DNA of 32,000 nt, taken from contig JBHLKY010000012.1 in the NCBI GenBank assembly GCA_048886185.1, forward strand, positions 5,881 to 37,880. Reading direction: 5' to 3'. Under the pieces are notes generated by a model. It did not search any database. It worked only from the letters and a program-made list of their open reading frames with translations, and was not told the DNA's origin. Below are positions 5,779 through 25,738 of the stretch, one piece after another. The DNA is from Candidatus Hermodarchaeota archaeon (GTDB lineage Archaea; Asgardarchaeota; Heimdallarchaeia; Hodarchaeales; Hodarchaeaceae). Position 1 is the first letter of the stretch. Each line of letters begins with the position of its first letter. The position numbers and the translations under genes were made by a program.

Positions 5779-6335
5779 ATGATGACCAATTCTAACAATC
5801 CACTAAAAATTGAAAAAATTAGGATCACACCTAAGAGATTCATTTATATTAAGCTCTGGAACCCTCATATCATTCTAAATGGGGAATTCATCGTTCTATA
5901 ATCGAATTGCAGGAAGCTAAGTTATCTGAAGATAAAAAGATTTCTTATGGCACCCCGATCCGTCTTCCCTGTGATGGAAGTTCAGCTCTTATCGCAGATC
6001 TTATAACTAACTATATAATTGACGGAAGACGACTGAATGATGAGTTTAAGGCGCATCAAGAGGAAATTTCCATATCTATACCAAAAACAGGGGAATCTAA
6101 ACGTAGTAACGAATATTCTGGTATGACTTTGGAATCTTTACTCCTAGATGAGTTTAGCAATCAGAAATTGTCAAAAACAAAAATAATTTCTGGACTCTCA
6201 AGAAAAGGAATTGAAATAGATAGGGAGGATTTACTCCAGTCACTCGAATCCTTAGCAGATCAAGGGAAGATAACAAAAGAGTTTGCTGTTCATTCAAGTT
6301 CAGGTACTCGTTACACTCTTTGGGGATTCTTTTAA
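5779..6335 (+). CDS. Putative nucleic-acid-binding protein (PC4/Whirly-like N-terminal beta region plus C-terminal winged helix), probable frameshift near 5851
   Basis: The 5907..6335 frame is open upstream to 5853 (ALEPSYHSKWGIHRSIIELQE). ATG 5779/5782 in another frame gives MTNSNNPLKIEKIRITPKRFIYIK; one extra A at ~5851 joins them. C-terminal wHTH pattern: SKTKIISGL..IDREDLLQSLESLADQGKITKE....RYTLW. Confidence 0.55.
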
Positions 6336-10938: not shown

Positions 10939-11454
10939 TTGGATGCGTTAGAACTATTAAAAAGTCGTAGAAGTATTCGAAAGTATAAATCAACCCCAGT
11001 AGAGCCTGAAAAAATTGAGAAATGTCTAGAGGCTGCTCAATGGAGTCCCTCTGCCAGCAATAAACAACCTTGGGAATTTCTGATCGTAACGGATGAAGAT
11101 AAGAGAAAAAAATTAGCTATTTTCCATCCTTATGGGAAATTTGTAGCAGAAAGCCCAGTAGTTTTCATTCCTTTAACCAATCCTAAGGTTCATCCCAAAT
11201 ATCATCAATCTGATACTGCCTTAGCTACCTTACAATTCATAATTGAAGCTCATTCCTTAGGTTTGGGAACTTGTTGGGCAGGGGTCATAGGAACAAACTT
11301 TGAAAACAAAATTAAGGATTTATTAAATATCCCTGAGCATCTAAGAGTACTTGCACTCGTGGCTGTTGGATATGCTAATGAAACTCCTAGTTCTAATCGA
11401 AAACCTATTGAGAGCTTAGTCCATAAAGAATCATACATTCGTCATTATTCCTAA
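10939..11454 (+). CDS. Nitroreductase family protein
   Basis: RRSIRKY, A..SPSASNKQPWEF, AHSLGLGTCW, LVAVGY. Confidence 0.93.
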   Translation: MDALELLKSRRSIRKYKSTPVEPEKIEKCLEAAQWSPSASNKQPWEFLIVTDEDKRKKLAIFHPYGKFVAESPVVFIPLTNPKVHPKYHQSDTALATLQFIIEAHSLGLGTCWAGVIGTNFENKIKDLLNIPEHLRVLALVAVGYANETPSSNRKPIESLVHKESYIRHYS

Positions 11455-11810
11455 AATTACTTTTTCAGTTCACCAATAAATGTCAAATCCCCTCCTTCTT
11501 GTTCTCCTTCCTTTAATATTTTTTATACTAGTAGAATTTTAATTTTTCAATAATTCTTGCATGATAGGGCGTTTTTTCAATCTCTGTAATGCATATGTGA
11601 TTTTTTAAGATGATTTGGATATAGATTTTCTTTTGGAATTTGAAAATTCCCAATTCTTTCTCTGTTTTAAAGGTTCTATCCTCACAAAATGGTCAAAATA
11701 GCTGATTATTATATAATATTTTGATTTTAATAAAAAATGCAAATCACCAAATAATTTATATGCTAAATATTAGAAAAAATGATTAATTTTGACAAAAAAA
11801 GTAAAAAAAC

Positions 11811-13706
11811 TTAGTTAGATCTTTTTGTTTTTCGGGAAAATATAACAAGTATTCCTATGAATAGAATAATGGATATGTGATTTAAAAATAAACCTGTTTG
11901 TTGGATTTGAGTGGTAGTTGGATTCATTTGCTGGGTCATCGTGCTTACTAGAATGGAAACTATAGAAGAAGATGTAATGATTATTGGTTTCCATAAGACA
12001 TAATAAGGTCTCATGAATTCAATTGGAAAAATGGTTTCATTTAGAGAAGAATCTATAAAATAAAAGCGATAGTAATATTCTAATTCCCTACTTAGCCCAA
12101 TAAACTCATACTGACCAGAATCCTTGAAATCTAAATCTTGTAAAACCAATTCTTGATATCCAGCAACACCCCACTCGATCTCTATTCGCACAGGGCGATC
12201 AATAGTCCATTCTACTAAAATACCTCTTGAAGTATTGAAAAACTCAAGGTGAAGGATTACTGGTTGGTAAGGGGATGGTTCAAATCCCCAAGTGGTTGAG
12301 AATGCCAAATTAAAGGTTTTTGGATAAAGTCGTGTAATGTTATTTTGATCAGCAATCCATAAACGATAATATACCCTGTAACTTACTGGTGCTTTAATTA
12401 AAATTGTTCTTGATGTATCAAGTGTTGTATTAATGTACTTTATTGTTTGATAACCTGCTTCCCCCCATTCTGCAATGATTTGCGTTGGAATATCGGTTTT
12501 TAGAGATAATCTGACACCTGCAGTCGTATTAATTGCATTAAATGAGACTACTTGAGGAGAAAACTCTGAATTTATAAAAACTGATGGTCTCCATTTATTA
12601 TAGTAATTTCTGATTAATGAATTGTTCGTAAGCCTATAAATAACCTCTAACTGGAAAACATGAATCTTTAGATAGTCAAAATTGACTTTACCTTTTCTTG
12701 CGTATTTCGAAAGCCCGAAATAAGTATCATATTCAGGAAGACTAGATTCAATTGCTGCACTTCCTTCATAAAATAATTGGCTTGCTAGGGCCTTTTTTTG
12801 CGTACGAGGGTGTTTTGAGTACTCATAAAGTCCAAAAATGGCATAAATATGACCGTTTAAGATAAATTCTAAGTCTTCCTCTTGTTCACAGGGCGATTCG
12901 AGAAACCATGTTTTATTGATTCCCTCAATAAAAGTAAATCCTCCTTTTTCCCGTGTATAATTGTTTCCTGTGAAAGTGATACCCCCCTCTTCCCATTCAT
13001 AAGTAAATGTTTCCAAGACTTTGTTTACTCCTTCTAAATAGGAACTATTTCCAGTGACTTCTTCTGCTCTAAGAAGAACTTGAATAATCAATCCTTGTGC
13101 TAACCCTGAGACCCAAGGTACAGTTTGTTTATGCCAAAGTGGGATTTTCCAATTATATAGGAAGAAACCATCGTTTGTCATGTTTTTCATTAAAAAATCA
13201 GCAATTTTCAGAAGTATACTATAATTGTTAATCTGATAATTAAATAATGCGAAGAAAGCTGTTGTTACAGGATTGTATTTCCAACCTAATTCATAATCGT
13301 GTAAGCTAATTATAACATATTCTCCGGTAAACTGATAGATTCCTTCTTTAAAGTGGCGTTCAATAGAAATTAAATCTTTATAAACTATTTTCCAACCATC
13401 AATATCATATTCCTTATAGAAGGAGTTGTTATTAGGAACATCTGGTGAAACAAGATTTGTTAATCCTTCTTTATGATGATAATCTATATTTTTTGTCTTT
13501 TCAAGGATTTTAGGATTTTTAATTTCTTTTGAATTCGAAAATAAGGAAGTATTGTATGAATAGGTAAAAAAGGATGAATAGGATATTAGGATTATAAGCA
13601 TAATGAATTGAATCATATTCTTAGACAGTCTATATTTCAAAATAAATAAGCTAATTCCAACATTAGGTGTTTCCACCTTTATTTCCTCTCTGATAGATTT
13701 TTTCAA
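11811..13706 (-). CDS. Surface-anchored D-glucuronyl C5-epimerase-like protein with two FN3/Ig-like repeats and a C-terminal TM anchor
   Basis: C5-epimerase C-terminal motifs YNPVT, WVSGLAQG, WFLESP, FILNGHIYAIFGLY, YDT, YLKIHVFQL, YYNKW. N-terminal hydrophobic segment, many NxS/T sequons, T/Q-rich linker, TM, then RKTKR. The start codon may lie downstream (MIQFIML). Confidence 0.8.
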   Translation of the reverse strand: MKKSIREEIKVETPNVGISLFILKYRLSKNMIQFIMLIILISYSSFFTYSYNTSLFSNSKEIKNPKILEKTKNIDYHHKEGLTNLVSPDVPNNNSFYKEYDIDGWKIVYKDLISIERHFKEGIYQFTGEYVIISLHDYELGWKYNPVTTAFFALFNYQINNYSILLKIADFLMKNMTNDGFFLYNWKIPLWHKQTVPWVSGLAQGLIIQVLLRAEEVTGNSSYLEGVNKVLETFTYEWEEGGITFTGNNYTREKGGFTFIEGINKTWFLESPCEQEEDLEFILNGHIYAIFGLYEYSKHPRTQKKALASQLFYEGSAAIESSLPEYDTYFGLSKYARKGKVNFDYLKIHVFQLEVIYRLTNNSLIRNYYNKWRPSVFINSEFSPQVVSFNAINTTAGVRLSLKTDIPTQIIAEWGEAGYQTIKYINTTLDTSRTILIKAPVSYRVYYRLWIADQNNITRLYPKTFNLAFSTTWGFEPSPYQPVILHLEFFNTSRGILVEWTIDRPVRIEIEWGVAGYQELVLQDLDFKDSGQYEFIGLSRELEYYYRFYFIDSSLNETIFPIEFMRPYYVLWKPIIITSSSIVSILVSTMTQQMNPTTTQIQQTGLFLNHISIILFIGILVIFSRKTKRSN

Positions 13707-14184
13707 TTTTAACGAATTTATTCATAACAAGAAAAAGGGATGGATATTTTGTTTAATTCAATATCTCCTTTTTAGTTTTTGATATGATATGTTAAGCTTA
13801 AGCCCACAAAAAATTCCAATAAACTCAAGAAAAGGTTTTTTTATATGTCTTTTCAAGAATATTGGTTCAGAATCAATGACTGTTTGTGGTTGTGTCTATT
13901 TGGGTAATTTAATCCAGGAACTAAACTTAAGAGGAATATTTATGCTATAACTGATGTACCAATATACTTCTAAACATCGATAAAATTTATTTTCGAAGAA
14001 AATCCAAGTAAATATTCCTTTTTAACATACATTAATATTATTGTTAAATGATAACTTTATGAAGCATAATAAGAGTAACTAAACGGCCATTTAGAGCATT
14101 TACGAGCTTTATTATTATTCATTCAAAGAAATTATCTACTTAACACCAACTAAAATTTCAATAAAGAATTCTATCATCATATGA

Positions 14185-14193
14185 TTTAATATA
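14185..14193 (+). promoter_or_regulatory. TATA box for the candidate sRNA
   Basis: TTTAATATA lies about 22-30 nt upstream of the 5' end of the structured element at 14215. No + strand ORF follows it. Confidence 0.5.
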
Positions 14194-14214
14194 GGATTAA
14201 AAAAATGGACAGAA

Positions 14215-14283
14215 TGAGCCCCTGATGTTCGAAAGGCATATGTCTGATTCGTGATGACTGAAGGTTCCGAACGATGGGGTTCA
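14215..14283 (+). ncRNA. Candidate C/D-box-like (K-turn/K-loop) small RNA, ~70 nt
   Basis: Terminal stem UGAGCCCC/GGGGUUCA; C-like UGAUGU (14223); D' CUGA (14244); loop UUC; C' GUGAUGA (14251), extended by GUC/GAC pairing; degenerate D (CCGA or ACGA). GC-richer than its flanks. Confidence 0.6.
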
Positions 14284-14285
14284 CT

Positions 14286-22070: not shown

Positions 22071-23264
22071 ATGACAAGCCCAAAAACAAGTCAAAAACGG
22101 TTTTATCTAGTATCTGTTGACATACTTCAAGGATTATCGATATTTTTGATGGTTATGGGTCATACATTGTTCTGGTGGGATGATCTTTTTAACACAAATT
22201 GGCCAGATATAGAATTCACAGTTGCTCTCGTCATTGCAATAGCGATCGTAGCACATCCTTGTTTTTTCTTTATCTACAGTTTTAATGTTGGAAATTCGCT
22301 TCTTTTGAAAGAAACTGACATTGAACGCCGTAAAACAAGACACCGTCTTATAAAACGAACTATTATTTTTATTTTAATTGCGGAATTGTTGGAAGGAGTA
22401 GCAGCACTAGTTATGTCACCTAAACATTTATTGAATTTCCTCCTCACTTGGGAATTATTTCATATGTTTGCTCTTTCTACACTTTTCCTCTTGGTTGTTT
22501 TTGAATTTGCTTGGCAAGTCGAGAAAAGAAGTAATTTCACCTCTAACAGTATTGTGATAACAGTTTTATTATTTGTCTTGGTTTCCTTGTTAATGATTTT
22601 CTTAATTTATCATGACTATGCGAATGCAGAGAAGCATTTAGTCTACGTAAATCTAAACATAAATTCTATTTTAAAGCGTATATTCTTTGAAGAAGGCCAA
22701 AATCCTATAATACCCTGGCTTTCATTTTCTGTTATCGGAGGACTCTTAGCTACATTTCTTGATTTACCACATGGGAAAAAAGAGGGTATTTTAAAGAAAT
22801 CAAGAATGGTAATAATTGGTGGATCGTTCATAATAATCATAGGTTCCTTATTTTTGAGTCTAGAGAGATACACTTCCACCCCTTTACTTTATTCAATTTC
22901 ATCCTCTTTCTTATTCATAGCGATAGGAATACTCATTCTTATTACGCCAATAATGATTGTATTTCTCGATATAGATTCGTTGTATTCAACACCAGACATT
23001 AATAGACTATCCTTACCATTAGTCCTTGTCAGTAATATTAGTTTAACAGTCTATATCTTTCATAATATTGGATTCATAATTCCTCCCGAATTTCCATTTT
23101 TGAATACATTTATCAGCATTGAAATAATACCCATTGTAATCGGGTTCCTGTATTCAATGTTCTTTGTATGTATTGCCTTTTTATGGAAAAAATCGGATTT
23201 TAAATACAGTTTGGAATGGATAATAATCAAACTCCAAAATATTTCATGGAGATGGTGGATATAA
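22071..23264 (+). CDS. Polytopic membrane acyltransferase, DUF1624/HGSNAT-catalytic-like (paralog 1)
   Basis: N-terminal R..SVDILQGLSIFLMVMGH, PCFFFIYSF, RRLIKR-like basic patch, PIIPWLSF, ISLTVYIFH; about 11 TM. Confidence 0.65.
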   Translation: MTSPKTSQKRFYLVSVDILQGLSIFLMVMGHTLFWWDDLFNTNWPDIEFTVALVIAIAIVAHPCFFFIYSFNVGNSLLLKETDIERRKTRHRLIKRTIIFILIAELLEGVAALVMSPKHLLNFLLTWELFHMFALSTLFLLVVFEFAWQVEKRSNFTSNSIVITVLLFVLVSLLMIFLIYHDYANAEKHLVYVNLNINSILKRIFFEEGQNPIIPWLSFSVIGGLLATFLDLPHGKKEGILKKSRMVIIGGSFIIIIGSLFLSLERYTSTPLLYSISSSFLFIAIGILILITPIMIVFLDIDSLYSTPDINRLSLPLVLVSNISLTVYIFHNIGFIIPPEFPFLNTFISIEIIPIVIGFLYSMFFVCIAFLWKKSDFKYSLEWIIIKLQNISWRWWI

Positions 23265-23336
23265 GTACAATTTGAGATTTCTAACTAAGATTCATGGATT
23301 CAAACAGATAATTTCTGTAAGTAAAGTGAAAAGAGT

Positions 23337-24539
23337 TTGAAGGAGAATATAACACAAAATCATTTCTATCTGGCTTCAATTGATATTCTCCAAGGAATTT
23401 CAATAATCTATTTTGTTACTTGGCATACAATGCTCTGGTGGGATCATTCCATTGATTCAAGATGGCCAAATGTTTTACTCCCTACTTATCTTTTTATGAC
23501 AACTGCAATGTGTATCCCTCCGTTGTTCTTCTGCCTCTATGGATTTAATGTTGCCAATTCATTAATGAGAAAAAGAACTGAAATTGAGCGTCACGATAGT
23601 AGAACACGGCTTTTAAAACGAACAGTAATATTTTTCGTGATTGCAGAATTCTGTGAAGGAATAACAGCGTTAGTAACAAATCCTGGCTATCTACTCAATT
23701 ACCTTTTCACATGGGAATTATTTCATCTATTTTCTCTCTCAACAATTTTTCTTTTATTAGTATTTGAGTTTGCTTGGAAATTAGAGGAACAAGAGGGGTA
23801 TAACTATCGAAAAATTGGTGGAAGCGTCTTAATATTCTTCTTGATTTTTATTATAGCCATTTTTTTGATTATTCATGACTATACAAGTAGTACAAGGATT
23901 GAAAGCATGCACGTTGAATTAGCTTTGGATTCGATTCTTAAAAGAATGCTGTTCGAGTATGGTCAAAATCCGGTGATTCCATGGCTTTCCTTCCCAATAA
24001 TTGGCGGAATAACAGCTATCTTCCTCAATTTAACAAATGAAGAGAGATCTGTTGCATTGAAAAAAACTTTACTGGCTTTTCTAGGTGGGTTCACTCCTTT
24101 GATTTTAGGAATACTTTTTCTCGGGATTGAAAGATATATTTCGAATCCAGTTTACTATCCAGCTTCCTCTTCCTTTTTATTCATAGCTATCGGTACTGTA
24201 ATTCTTTTAACAACGTCTTTGATTCTTATCATTGATTTAAACCTTAAAAATTCTCAAATTATAATTAAAATATTTAAACCATTGATTCTTATCAGTAAAA
24301 TTAGCTTGACCGTTTTCATTATTCATTATGGAGTGTATATCATCCCCCCTGAATTCATCCTCTTTACAATACTCATCTCATCTGAAATAGCTGCTATGAT
24401 CCTGGGATTCCTTTATTCACTAACTTTTGTTTTAATTGCTTTCATCTGGCAAAAATGGCATTATATGTACAGTTTGGAATGGACAATCTCTAAGCTACAA
24501 ACAACCCCATGGCGATGGTGGCTTGATAGATCAGTATGA
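23337..24539 (+). CDS. Polytopic membrane acyltransferase, DUF1624/HGSNAT-catalytic-like (paralog 2)
   Basis: SIDILQGISII..TWH, TWELFH, GQNPVIPWLSF, SSSFLFIAIG, YSLEW shared with the upstream gene. Confidence 0.65.
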   Translation: MKENITQNHFYLASIDILQGISIIYFVTWHTMLWWDHSIDSRWPNVLLPTYLFMTTAMCIPPLFFCLYGFNVANSLMRKRTEIERHDSRTRLLKRTVIFFVIAEFCEGITALVTNPGYLLNYLFTWELFHLFSLSTIFLLLVFEFAWKLEEQEGYNYRKIGGSVLIFFLIFIIAIFLIIHDYTSSTRIESMHVELALDSILKRMLFEYGQNPVIPWLSFPIIGGITAIFLNLTNEERSVALKKTLLAFLGGFTPLILGILFLGIERYISNPVYYPASSSFLFIAIGTVILLTTSLILIIDLNLKNSQIIIKIFKPLILISKISLTVFIIHYGVYIIPPEFILFTILISSEIAAMILGFLYSLTFVLIAFIWQKWHYMYSLEWTISKLQTTPWRWWLDRSV

Positions 24540-24682
24540 CATGATTAGAAGTTGTTCATGATTTTTAGTGAAGTTTTCAGTTATTAAATATCGTATTTAC
24601 AAAGAAATGAACCATTTTACGAAGAGTGTTCAAACTTTGAATGGCTTTATATAATAGTTAATTAATATATACATTCAGTGGT

Positions 24683-25738
24683 ATGCAGTCAAATATATTG
24701 AATAATTCTACTTCTGTTATAGAACAACCTATAATCAATGGTCATGAAATACTACTATTTGAAGAAGACATCGCCTGGAATGCGATCAAGGGTTGGATTA
24801 TGACCCAATATCTCAATCAGAAGGGATTATTAGTTTATAATGGTGAGCTTGTCAATCGAACATTCCTAAAAGCTGTATTTCAGGTTATTAATGAAAATCA
24901 AATTCACCAAAAACCAAAGAAACTCTACTCAATTAGTACCCTCCTAAGATTGATTGATCAAGATATGGAAGAAAAAGTTCGTGAAATTATTAGAAATCAG
25001 ATATGGGAAGCAATTGAGAGAGATAATGTTCTAGGACTAAGCTATATTTTCAATTTTGTCGAACATATAGAAATCAATAAATTAGCTGTTCTTAATTTGG
25101 AACGTATTCTAAAAGGTCTTTTTCAAAATAAATTTGGTTTTCCTATAGATTGCTGCTGTCTTTATCCTGCGTCACTTGATGTACTGGACTTTGCTGAATT
25201 AGTTAATCTTCATGACGGATACCAAATCTTTGATCACTATCAGAAACCAAGATTAAAACATCATGTGCAGACAGATCAAATTAGTTGGACTCATAAAGAA
25301 ATAGATGTAGAATCACAAAAACAAGACAGCTCCATTCCTTATATTGCTAAACGAGCTTATTCAAAATCAAACTCACCTTTCTATTTTTCCCAGGGGGATC
25401 GGATTATTGGTATAGCTAATGATCTTAAAGATCTTTACAATCAACTTGGAAAAATCCCATTAGATGTTTTTTGTTTTCATTGTTATAGGATTAGTCAATC
25501 TAATCTCGCAGGCCATGCTATATCACCAAGCCCCAGAAGCGATATTGCGCTTTGGATCGAATATTCAGTTGGAGACACTCAGCTAGCTCATCAAATCTAT
25601 GATACAGTAAACCACTCCTTATGTGATCAGAAAACGCTTGAAGCAGGATCAAAATTTACTCAAATAACCATAAGATCTACTGTTCTCCAACTAATCAAAG
25701 CGAGGTTAGATTATCTTTCTTCTGTAGAATTCATGTGA
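24683..25738 (+). CDS. MEDS-like N-terminal domain fused to a DUF5752-like C-terminal domain
   Basis: N-terminal GHEILLFE...CCCLYP..L.FAELVNLHDGY resembles MEDS. C-terminal PFYF..G.IA.DL.DL...L..IP.DVFCFH...SDIALWIEYSVGD.QLA resembles DUF5752. Confidence 0.55.
   Translation: MQSNILNNSTSVIEQPIINGHEILLFEEDIAWNAIKGWIMTQYLNQKGLLVYNGELVNRTFLKAVFQVINENQIHQKPKKLYSISTLLRLIDQDMEEKVREIIRNQIWEAIERDNVLGLSYIFNFVEHIEINKLAVLNLERILKGLFQNKFGFPIDCCCLYPASLDVLDFAELVNLHDGYQIFDHYQKPRLKHHVQTDQISWTHKEIDVESQKQDSSIPYIAKRAYSKSNSPFYFSQGDRIIGIANDLKDLYNQLGKIPLDVFCFHCYRISQSNLAGHAISPSPRSDIALWIEYSVGDTQLAHQIYDTVNHSLCDQKTLEAGSKFTQITIRSTVLQLIKARLDYLSSVEFM

Follow-up and report, generated by a model that had tools for sequence, protein, structure and literature searches.

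A predicted cell-surface protein of the GLCE (PF06662) epimerase family carried as a single-gene insertion in an Asgard archaeal genome

The stretch analysed here (the window; 32,000 nucleotides, positions 5,881 to 37,880 of contig JBHLKY010000012.1) belongs to an assembly of a Candidatus Hermodarchaeota archaeon (GCA_048886185.1). A gene on its minus strand (11811-13706) encodes a member of the family of GLCE, the animal heparan-sulfate C5-epimerase (Pfam PF06662), most likely a membrane-tethered, N-glycosylated enzyme that faces away from the cytoplasm. Judging from the conserved residues, the protein is somewhat more probably than otherwise (about 0.55) an active, cofactor-free uronate C5-epimerase that would work on polymers outside the membrane. 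The gene is a strain-specific accessory insertion of 2.7 kb in an otherwise conserved syntenic block. The coordinates of its features are collected in Table 1.

The match to PF06662 (C5-epim_C) has an E value of 3.9e-32 and a score of 111.7 bits (cut-off 23.3) and covers model positions 7-187/188. Among PDB sequences, phmmer finds significant matches only to zebrafish (1.2e-7) and human (6e-7) GLCE, and a profile built from 144 homologues (A1) detects the GLCE chains with an E value of 5.7e-63. The AlphaFold model has a predicted local distance difference test score (pLDDT) of 85-98 over residues ~120-370; the N-terminal linker and the C-terminal third are modelled poorly. With this model as query, Foldseek places eight GLCE chains on top (E 4e-11 to 2e-10; next fold 7e-4). 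The structure of residues 101-378 is superimposable by VIA-align on residues 163-611 of human GLCE, with a Z score of 29.1 and a root-mean-square deviation (rmsd) of 2.5 Å over 256 aligned residues (human and zebrafish GLCE, 6HZZ and 6I02). The next-best folds, dextran dextrinase and GH8 enzymes, reach Z 15-16, and AGE-type epimerases (3VW5, 7D5G, and others) only ~14. A generic alpha/alpha barrel is ruled out by the difference between 29.1 for GLCE and 16 for the next fold. The initial annotation, made by a model from the sequence alone, had recognised C5-epimerase C-terminal motifs in this gene, and both the Pfam search and the structural alignment to GLCE bear this out. The central beta-sandwich of animal GLCE is skipped in the alignment, and the ~280 residues of the aligned region leave no space for it; the modelled layout is the minimal prokaryotic one, a short beta element followed by the alpha/alpha barrel. 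Bit scores are 31-34 against animal GLCE and up to 99 against uncharacterised prokaryotic members.

An exhaustive HMMER search of 1.84 billion cluster representatives returns 1,425 matches at E 1e-3 or better, so that the few prokaryotic homologs mentioned in the initial annotation are in fact more than 1,400 cluster representatives. Just four lie below E 1e-30: the protein itself (P0001), P0003 (499 aa), P0015 (578 aa), and P0016 (596 aa). These long forms share one plan, consisting of a signal peptide, the catalytic domain, one or two Fn3-like domains, a stalk, an anchor, and a basic tail, and a FastTree phylogeny of 155 prokaryotic domains groups them in a single clade (local support 98%). 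The neighbours of the clade in the tree are long branches (L036, P0076); their placement is not trusted and no donor is named. An N-terminal hydrophobic segment occurs in 74 of 135 homologues, and an extracytoplasmic location is common in the PF06662 family rather than unique to the long-form clade. Bacterial members are fused to SLH (P0043), to dockerin and CARDB (P0060), and to TIG (P0048) modules, and further fusions in the set P0043, P0060, P0048, P0136, and P0031 involve DUF333 or a methyltransferase. The papers searched yielded no description of these bacterial cell-surface or cellulosome-associated architectures, and nothing specific on PF06662 or on Asgard archaea together with C5-epimerase.

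The key residues of GLCE are E499, Y500, N510, Y560, and Y578 (PMC13308652). Their equivalents were taken from the phmmer alignment, with 6HZZ chain numbering (offset 90), and from the profile alignment. Four of the five are kept (E270, N284, Y335, and Y345), all in model regions with pLDDT 88-97. Debarnot et al. reportedly identified Glu499 and Tyr578 as the acid/base pair of GLCE in 2019. The counterpart of the GLCE motif WYEEYP is WFLESP (aa 267-272), and DYLKIHVFQL aligns with DYHTTHINQL. The initial annotation had given the human motif as WYEEYP, with its Glu kept and the following Tyr changed to Ser in this protein, and had seen a retained Tyr in a YxxxH..QL pattern; the phmmer alignment agrees with the former, and the latter is Tyr345, the counterpart of Tyr578.

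Both residues flanking the acid/base Glu are replaced. The triplet is Leu-Glu-Ser in this protein and Glu-Glu-Tyr in 84 of the 144 homologues, and the column corresponding to Tyr500 contains Tyr (96), Phe (14), Val (13), Cys (7), Ile (5), and Ala (3). Thus, the Tyr500 position does not define the prokaryotic PF06662 family. Because the position is so variable, the change from Tyr to Ser alone, from which the initial annotation had derived a possibly altered specificity, is weak evidence for it. All four long-form proteins, however, carry Leu-Glu-[Ser/Cys/Val] at the triplet, a clade-wide pattern that is more telling than the single substitution. Across the clade, whose members are 31-34% identical, neither the four catalytic residues nor His349 and Gln352 vary.

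Hydropathy analysis identifies two hydrophobic segments, residues 31-49 and 604-624, the latter followed by RKTKRSN. According to the positive-inside rule, both termini would be cytoplasmic, or the N-terminus cleaved, with everything between them outside. The N-termini of P0003 and P0015 resemble classical signal peptides. The N-terminal hydrophobic segment, the C-terminal anchor, and the extracellular placement given in the initial annotation all hold, since the topology puts the domain outside the cell. Family, fold, and outward topology can together be regarded as secure with high confidence.

Residues 381-578 match P0024, a protein with repeated PF16656/fn3 domains, at HMMER E 1e-19, and also match P0090. 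The two halves of this region are 25.5% identical to each other (E 3.4e-4), and its Atlas look-alikes are all PF16656/fn3 proteins, with a score of 0.89 that has the level of a lead. The Pfam scan of the protein itself finds nothing over residues 381-578, and the model shows beta strands there with a pLDDT of just 27-74. Although its own Pfam match is absent and the model is weak, we read this region as two probable Fn3-like domains.

The same overall plan (N-terminal hydrophobic segment, stalk, C-terminal helix, and basic tail) is found by a rough hydropathy filter in ~140 open reading frames (ORFs) of the genome, for example on C12, C10, and C2. Many of these have a PGF or PGF-like motif before the helix, where the epimerase has TGLF (QQTGLFLNH...). 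Sorting by PGF-CTERM and archaeosortase A was considered for the epimerase and rejected, as it has no PGF and no NCBIfam model matches it even at an E-value limit of 1; for the same reasons, the helix is treated as a plain anchor. For the genome as a whole, sub-threshold archaeosortase A matches (TIGR04125, 24-30 bits) are only two (L037, C7:165684-166007; L038, C8:72080-72403). Because there are only these two and both are weak, a large surface glycoproteome may be processed by a divergent sortase in the host.

The multiple sequons reported in the initial annotation prove to be more than expected by composition. NxS/T occurs 13 times, compared with 5.7 +/- 2.1 expected, and 13 is reached in only 2 of 2000 composition-preserving shuffles; the density lies at the 96.6th percentile of the 3,380 ORFs of the genome with at least 150 aa. 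Two other long forms are also significantly enriched (P0015, 15 vs 6.5; P0016, 18 vs 7.0), and P0003 marginally (10 vs 5.8 expected, with 47 of 1000 shuffles getting to 10), whereas none of the six short homologues tested is. The sequon columns at residues 175, 220, and 426 are common to all four long-form proteins despite their 31-34% identity, and such conservation is good indirect evidence that the glycosylation sites are used. The genome encodes one AglB/STT3. Enrichment and conservation of the sequons support a predicted outward-facing glycoprotein, whose ectodomain (residues ~58-578) is well delimited and has a single cysteine.

Table 1 Features of the epimerase gene and its insertion site (window coordinates)
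Feature	Position	Strand	Residues and remarks
Whole ORF	11811..13706	-	631 aa from TTG; TAA stop 11811-11813, then oligo-T runs
GTG start candidate	13674-13676	-	aa 11; GAGAGG upstream
ATG start candidate	13614-13616	-	aa 31
N-terminal hydrophobic segment	13560..13616	-	aa 31-49; basic KYRLSK before; long helix in model; signal peptide or signal anchor
Low-confidence linker, probably disordered	13407..13535	-	aa 58-100; pLDDT 34-42; little conserved in four-protein alignment (A2)
GLCE-type catalytic domain (short beta element + alpha/alpha barrel)	12573..13406	-	aa 101-378
PF06662 match within catalytic domain	12588-13163	-	aa 182-373
Leu269-Glu270-Ser271	12894..12902	-	Human Glu498-Glu499-Tyr500; Glu kept, both flanking residues replaced
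Glu270			Human Glu499; Glu in 132/144 homologues
Ser271			Human Tyr500; Tyr in 96/144 homologues
Asn284	12855..12857	-	Human Asn510; LNG motif; Asn in 141/144 homologues
Tyr335	12702..12704	-	Human Tyr560; Tyr in 140/144 homologues
Tyr345	12672..12674	-	Human Tyr578; Tyr in 134/144 homologues; then His349, Gln352
Fn3-like domain 1 (purple-acid-phosphatase-N type), putative	12282..12566	-	aa 381-475; HMMER match to P0024, model beta strands
Fn3-like domain 2, putative internal duplicate of domain 1	11973..12275	-	aa 478-578
Ser/Thr/Gln-rich stalk	11898..11972	-	aa 579-603
Predicted C-terminal transmembrane helix and basic cytoplasmic tail RKTKRSN	11814..11897	-	aa 604-624 and 625-631
Left copy of 12-nt direct repeat, TCCATAAAGAAT	11420..11431	+	Insertion junction, within nitroreductase 3' end
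Right copy of direct repeat, TCAATAAAGAAT	14158..14169	+	Then relic of original nitroreductase 3' end

The gene is a single intact ORF of 631 codons counted from TTG, with two oligo-T runs directly 3' of its stop codon. In public gene calls the protein begins at the GTG (621 aa) or the ATG (601 aa). The GTG is favoured over the other candidates because GAGAGG precedes it and because the basic KYRLSK is then kept before the hydrophobic core. The gene is real: it is intact, no module of its product has a paralogue in the genome, and the identical protein is present on nine contigs of several assemblies. It is bordered by AT-rich spacers of 356 bp downstream and 579 bp upstream, both of which were examined for ORFs and contain none of substance. 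A search of the window against Rfam gave no match.

The host assembly (4.84 Mb, 35% GC, 96% complete) encodes actin (442 bits) and a RagA/Gtr1-family GTPase, and the host is therefore read as an Asgard archaeon. PF06662 is present in one copy in its genome and was found in none of 21 congeners. Across 400 genomes of the phylum, 12 including the host have strong PF06662 matches; the other 11 are short forms of 283-423 codons, and nine of those 11 genomes belong to one other family. The three closest congeners, in which the neighbouring MFS-OYE protein is 73-77% identical, otherwise have the same order of genes, and their gap from the nitroreductase to the MFS-OYE gene is ~130-200 bp, compared with 2,738 bp between the same points in the host. 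The inserted segment (~11432-14169, 2,738 bp) is delimited by two copies of a direct repeat that are 11/12 identical. Repeats of this 12-nt class are frequent by chance in AT-rich DNA (16 families found; the junction pair is D14), but this pair is informative because it is placed exactly at both insertion junctions. Synteny, junction repeats, and absence from the congeners together identify the gene as an accessory single-gene insertion. At the left junction the last five codons of the nitroreductase are replaced, giving the enzyme a new C-terminus in the host, and a relic remains at the right junction (11420-11454, 14158-14200).

Two interpretations of the insertion were rejected. Recent transfer is not indicated by composition, since GC (32.0% vs 35.9 +/- 2.9 across all ORFs) and third-position GC (GC3, 33rd percentile) are unremarkable, and the insertion rests on synteny; carriage as cargo of a mobile element is rejected as well, because the flanks of the insert contain no ORF of substance. 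The insertion immediately adjoins a GC-richer 69-nt element with an 8-bp closing stem, directly past the 3' end of the MFS-OYE gene (14216-14284, plus strand). This element is nearly base-identical, at the same position, in three congeners (L024, L025, and L026); RNAalifold predicts 19 pairs, with no compensatory change in the four sequences and no Rfam match.

Scans of genome contigs, with the single protein and with the four-protein alignment, found no relative. A metagenome scan found one locus (L007, 40.7% GC), which carries P0015. Its organism is only distantly related; one marker gene best matches the host genus within the phylum, at ~45% identity, which is a faint hint of a possibly related lineage. 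In L007, the gene for the epimerase homologue is followed ~1.5 kb downstream by an IS605 OrfB/TnpB-type gene (11066-12277), and a gene for an M48 peptidase separates the two.

The genes flanking the epimerase encode a nitroreductase, an MFS-OYE fusion, a cyclophilin, a pyridoxal phosphate enzyme, and a BcrAD-type ATPase. The sole full uridine diphosphate (UDP)-sugar 6-dehydrogenase of the genome lies on another contig (L027, G000:C6, 5110-14064), in a cluster of the nonulosonic-acid type with NeuB, a cytidylyltransferase, oxidoreductases, and a glycerophosphotransferase-like protein. A search for GT64 gave no match in the host, but control genomes are equally silent, so that its absence is not established. 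On contig C28 (L041, 90-3496), a sulfotransferase of the 3'-phosphoadenosine 5'-phosphosulfate (PAPS) type (392 aa, PF13469) adjoins an arylsulfotransferase (704 aa, PF05935), and the pair possibly confers a capacity for sulfated surface molecules. Hsp90 and the RagA/Gtr1-family GTPase are encoded near this pair, which is unlinked to the epimerase. These clues leave heparan sulfate without specific backing from the genome. In the window itself, 8 kb from the epimerase, a 397-aa ORF with no Pfam match precedes a membrane acyltransferase of the Acyl_transf_3 family and a protein with a weak DUF5752 match (22071-25738); the three could form a small surface-modification set.

We infer the catalytic activity, the polymer-level action, and the nature of the substrate from these observations. 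The N-terminal signal or anchor segment would carry the chain across the membrane, and the C-terminal helix and basic tail would retain it. The two Fn3-like domains and the Ser/Thr stalk would raise the GLCE-type barrel above the cell surface, where the catalytic domain would act on an acidic glycan that is already polymerised and exported. Glu270 and Tyr345, positioned on opposite faces of a hexuronic acid, would remove and re-add the C5 proton and so invert C5. Because neither cofactor nor energy is needed, the reaction could run outside the cell, as for the alginate epimerases. Having come as one 2.7-kb insertion, the gene is an accessory trait of the species. Epimerase activity is favoured because the Glu/Tyr pair, the Asn, and the second Tyr are conserved and invariant across a divergent clade, and because Bermanella RED65_08024 provides a precedent; the UDP-sugar 6-dehydrogenase is counted as a sugar supply. 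Since the replacements of Glu498 by Leu and Tyr500 by Ser are common to the clade with this architecture, they point to a substrate that is probably other than N-sulfated heparosan.

Several observations weigh against such an epimerase. There are no glycosyltransferase, sugar-nucleotide, or export genes in the flanks of the gene, and the neighbours of the homologue in L007 likewise include no glycan genes. The dehydrogenase of the nonulosonic-acid-type cluster may not be a producer of UDP-glucuronic acid. The catalytic domain is net acidic (27 K+R vs 32 D+E), which is not expected of a cleft that binds a polyanion. In addition, both Tyr500 and Glu498 are replaced, and mutation of the zebrafish equivalent of Tyr500 reportedly kills activity (as Qin et al. 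are said to have found in 2015). The acidic domain and the lack of adjacent glycan genes also count against the link to heparan sulfate drawn in the initial annotation.

A surface enzyme that acts on foreign, environmental uronic-acid polysaccharides, by lyase-like elimination or by preparing polymers for degradation or uptake, is an unlikely though considered alternative. It would account for the clade-wide replacement of the residues beside the acid/base Glu and for an accessory gene without linkage to biosynthesis genes. Polysaccharide-degrading enzymes typically have Fn3-like modules and a surface tether, dockerin and CARDB occur on the bacterial member P0060, and GH8, GH88/105, and a polysaccharide lyase are among the lower-ranked fold matches. 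However, Glu270, Tyr345, Asn284, and Tyr335 are all kept, as in epimerases, and the insert contains no co-inserted transporter or sugar-catabolic genes. We also know of no lyase or hydrolase among PF06662 members, which argues in the same direction. The retained residues argue as well against a non-catalytic glycan binder or adhesin that has kept the GLCE fold and lost turnover, which we consider improbable. The loss of Tyr500, a residue reported as key (PMC13308652), and of Glu498 would fit such a protein, as would an architecture like that of the many surface proteins of the genome, but about one third of family members have no Tyr at this position, and the four catalytic residues with His349 and Gln352 are invariant at 31-34% identity, indicating selection on the active site.

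Equally improbable is a true heparosan or heparan-sulfate-type glucuronic acid C5-epimerase making an iduronate-containing, glycosaminoglycan-like surface polymer. Among solved structures GLCE comes closest, and the genome has a UDP-sugar dehydrogenase and, on a different contig, the PAPS-type sulfotransferase beside the arylsulfotransferase. Set against this are the similarity to GLCE, far under that to prokaryotic members, the substitutions flanking the catalytic Glu in a net acidic domain, the lack of linkage to a polymer synthase, and the missing GT64 match, for which the control is silent too and absence is not established. Descent of animal GLCE from a vertically inherited Asgard forerunner is nearly excluded by distribution and synteny. 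The Asgard affiliation of the host and the orientation of both proteins towards topologically extracytoplasmic space would suit it, yet the gene sits in a 2.7-kb insertion within otherwise conserved synteny, PF06662 is missing from all 21 congeners, the few other strong matches in the phylum are short forms, the central beta-sandwich is lacking, and scores against GLCE are lower than those against prokaryotic homologues. As a sporadic accessory insertion, the gene says little about Asgard biology or the origin of the eukaryotic enzyme.

A bolder reading, in which a GLCE-type enzyme tethered to the outside of the membrane epimerises glucuronate or another hexuronate of the Asgard archaeon's own exported surface glycans, is improbable. 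If true, it would be a prokaryotic counterpart of glycosaminoglycan editing in the Golgi lumen and, besides Agl32, a second and independent archaeal route to iduronate; the protein would then be the first PF06662 enzyme from Archaea whose function had been demonstrated. Iduronic acid is best known from animal glycosaminoglycans, and to our knowledge no archaeal PF06662 protein has been characterised. The listing of archaeal PF06662 proteins, the large size of the family, and the existence of surface-displayed bacterial versions in databases are already known. New here are an architecture found in four clusters among the representatives searched, its active-site variant (Leu-Glu-Ser/Cys/Val), and the occurrence of such a gene, recently inserted, in the genome of an Asgard archaeon. 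With an intact active-site core, an unambiguous outward topology, and a delimited ectodomain, the protein is a clean test candidate for GLCE-type chemistry on archaeal surfaces, and the Leu-Glu-Ser triplet of its clade is a natural experiment on the contributions of Tyr500 and Glu498.

Human GLCE is a type II Golgi protein. It shares with the archaeal protein the Pfam family, the alpha/alpha-barrel catalytic domain (Z 29, rmsd 2.5 Å, 256 residues), and the equivalents of Glu499, Asn510, Tyr560, and Tyr578; in both, the catalytic domain faces topologically extracytoplasmic space and the protein is probably N-glycosylated. The two differ in sequence (~20% identity), in the Ser and Leu that replace Tyr500 and Glu498, and in the C-terminal anchor and two Fn3-like domains of the archaeal protein, which lacks the central beta-sandwich. 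Animal GLCE is composed of three domains, a beta-hairpin, the central beta-sandwich, and an alpha domain (PMC13308652).

The best functional precedent is RED65_08024 of Bermanella marisrubri, which, as Raedts et al. 2013 is relayed in PMC4432689 and PMC13308652, is the only characterised prokaryotic PF06662 epimerase; epimerisation of glucuronic to iduronic acid at the polymer level is described as demonstrated for it (PMC4432689). We found no record of Fn3-like domains or a C-terminal anchor in this protein. Raedts et al. 2011 (PMC3068255) already listed archaeal PF06662 proteins, from Methanocaldococcus, Thermococcus, and others. The short archaeal and bacterial proteins (~300-420 aa) share the catalytic domain, in which a short beta element comes first and the beta-sandwich is absent, and about half have an N-terminal hydrophobic segment; unlike the protein described here, they are without the Fn3-like pair, stalk, and C-terminal anchor, their sequons are not enriched, and most (84/144) retain the Glu-Glu-Tyr triplet. 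The bacterial SLH, dockerin/CARDB, and TIG fusions (P0043, P0060, and P0048) also display a GLCE-type domain outside by way of accessory modules, but these are wall or cellulosome modules instead of archaeal-style Fn3, stalk, and transmembrane anchor, and they fall outside the four-member clade.

The mannuronan C5-epimerases AlgG and AlgE1-7 have a beta-helix fold. They offer a working analogy only, in that they carry out cofactor-free, polymer-level uronate C5-epimerisation outside the cytoplasm; their fold is unrelated to the alpha/alpha barrel modelled here. The only proven archaeal glucuronic acid C5-epimerase is Agl32 (VNG1058H) of Halobacterium salinarum, a single alpha-helical domain of 372 aa in the AglQ/AGE-like family that is reported to lack all GLCE catalytic residues (PMC13308652). 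Agl32 likewise is archaeal and acts on glucuronic acid of a surface glycan, an N-linked tetrasaccharide, but it belongs to another family and reportedly misses the catalytic residues that are present here. The protein described here is valuable mainly because it makes GLCE-type chemistry tractable to test in Archaea; the only proven glucuronic acid epimerase there, Agl32, is of another family.

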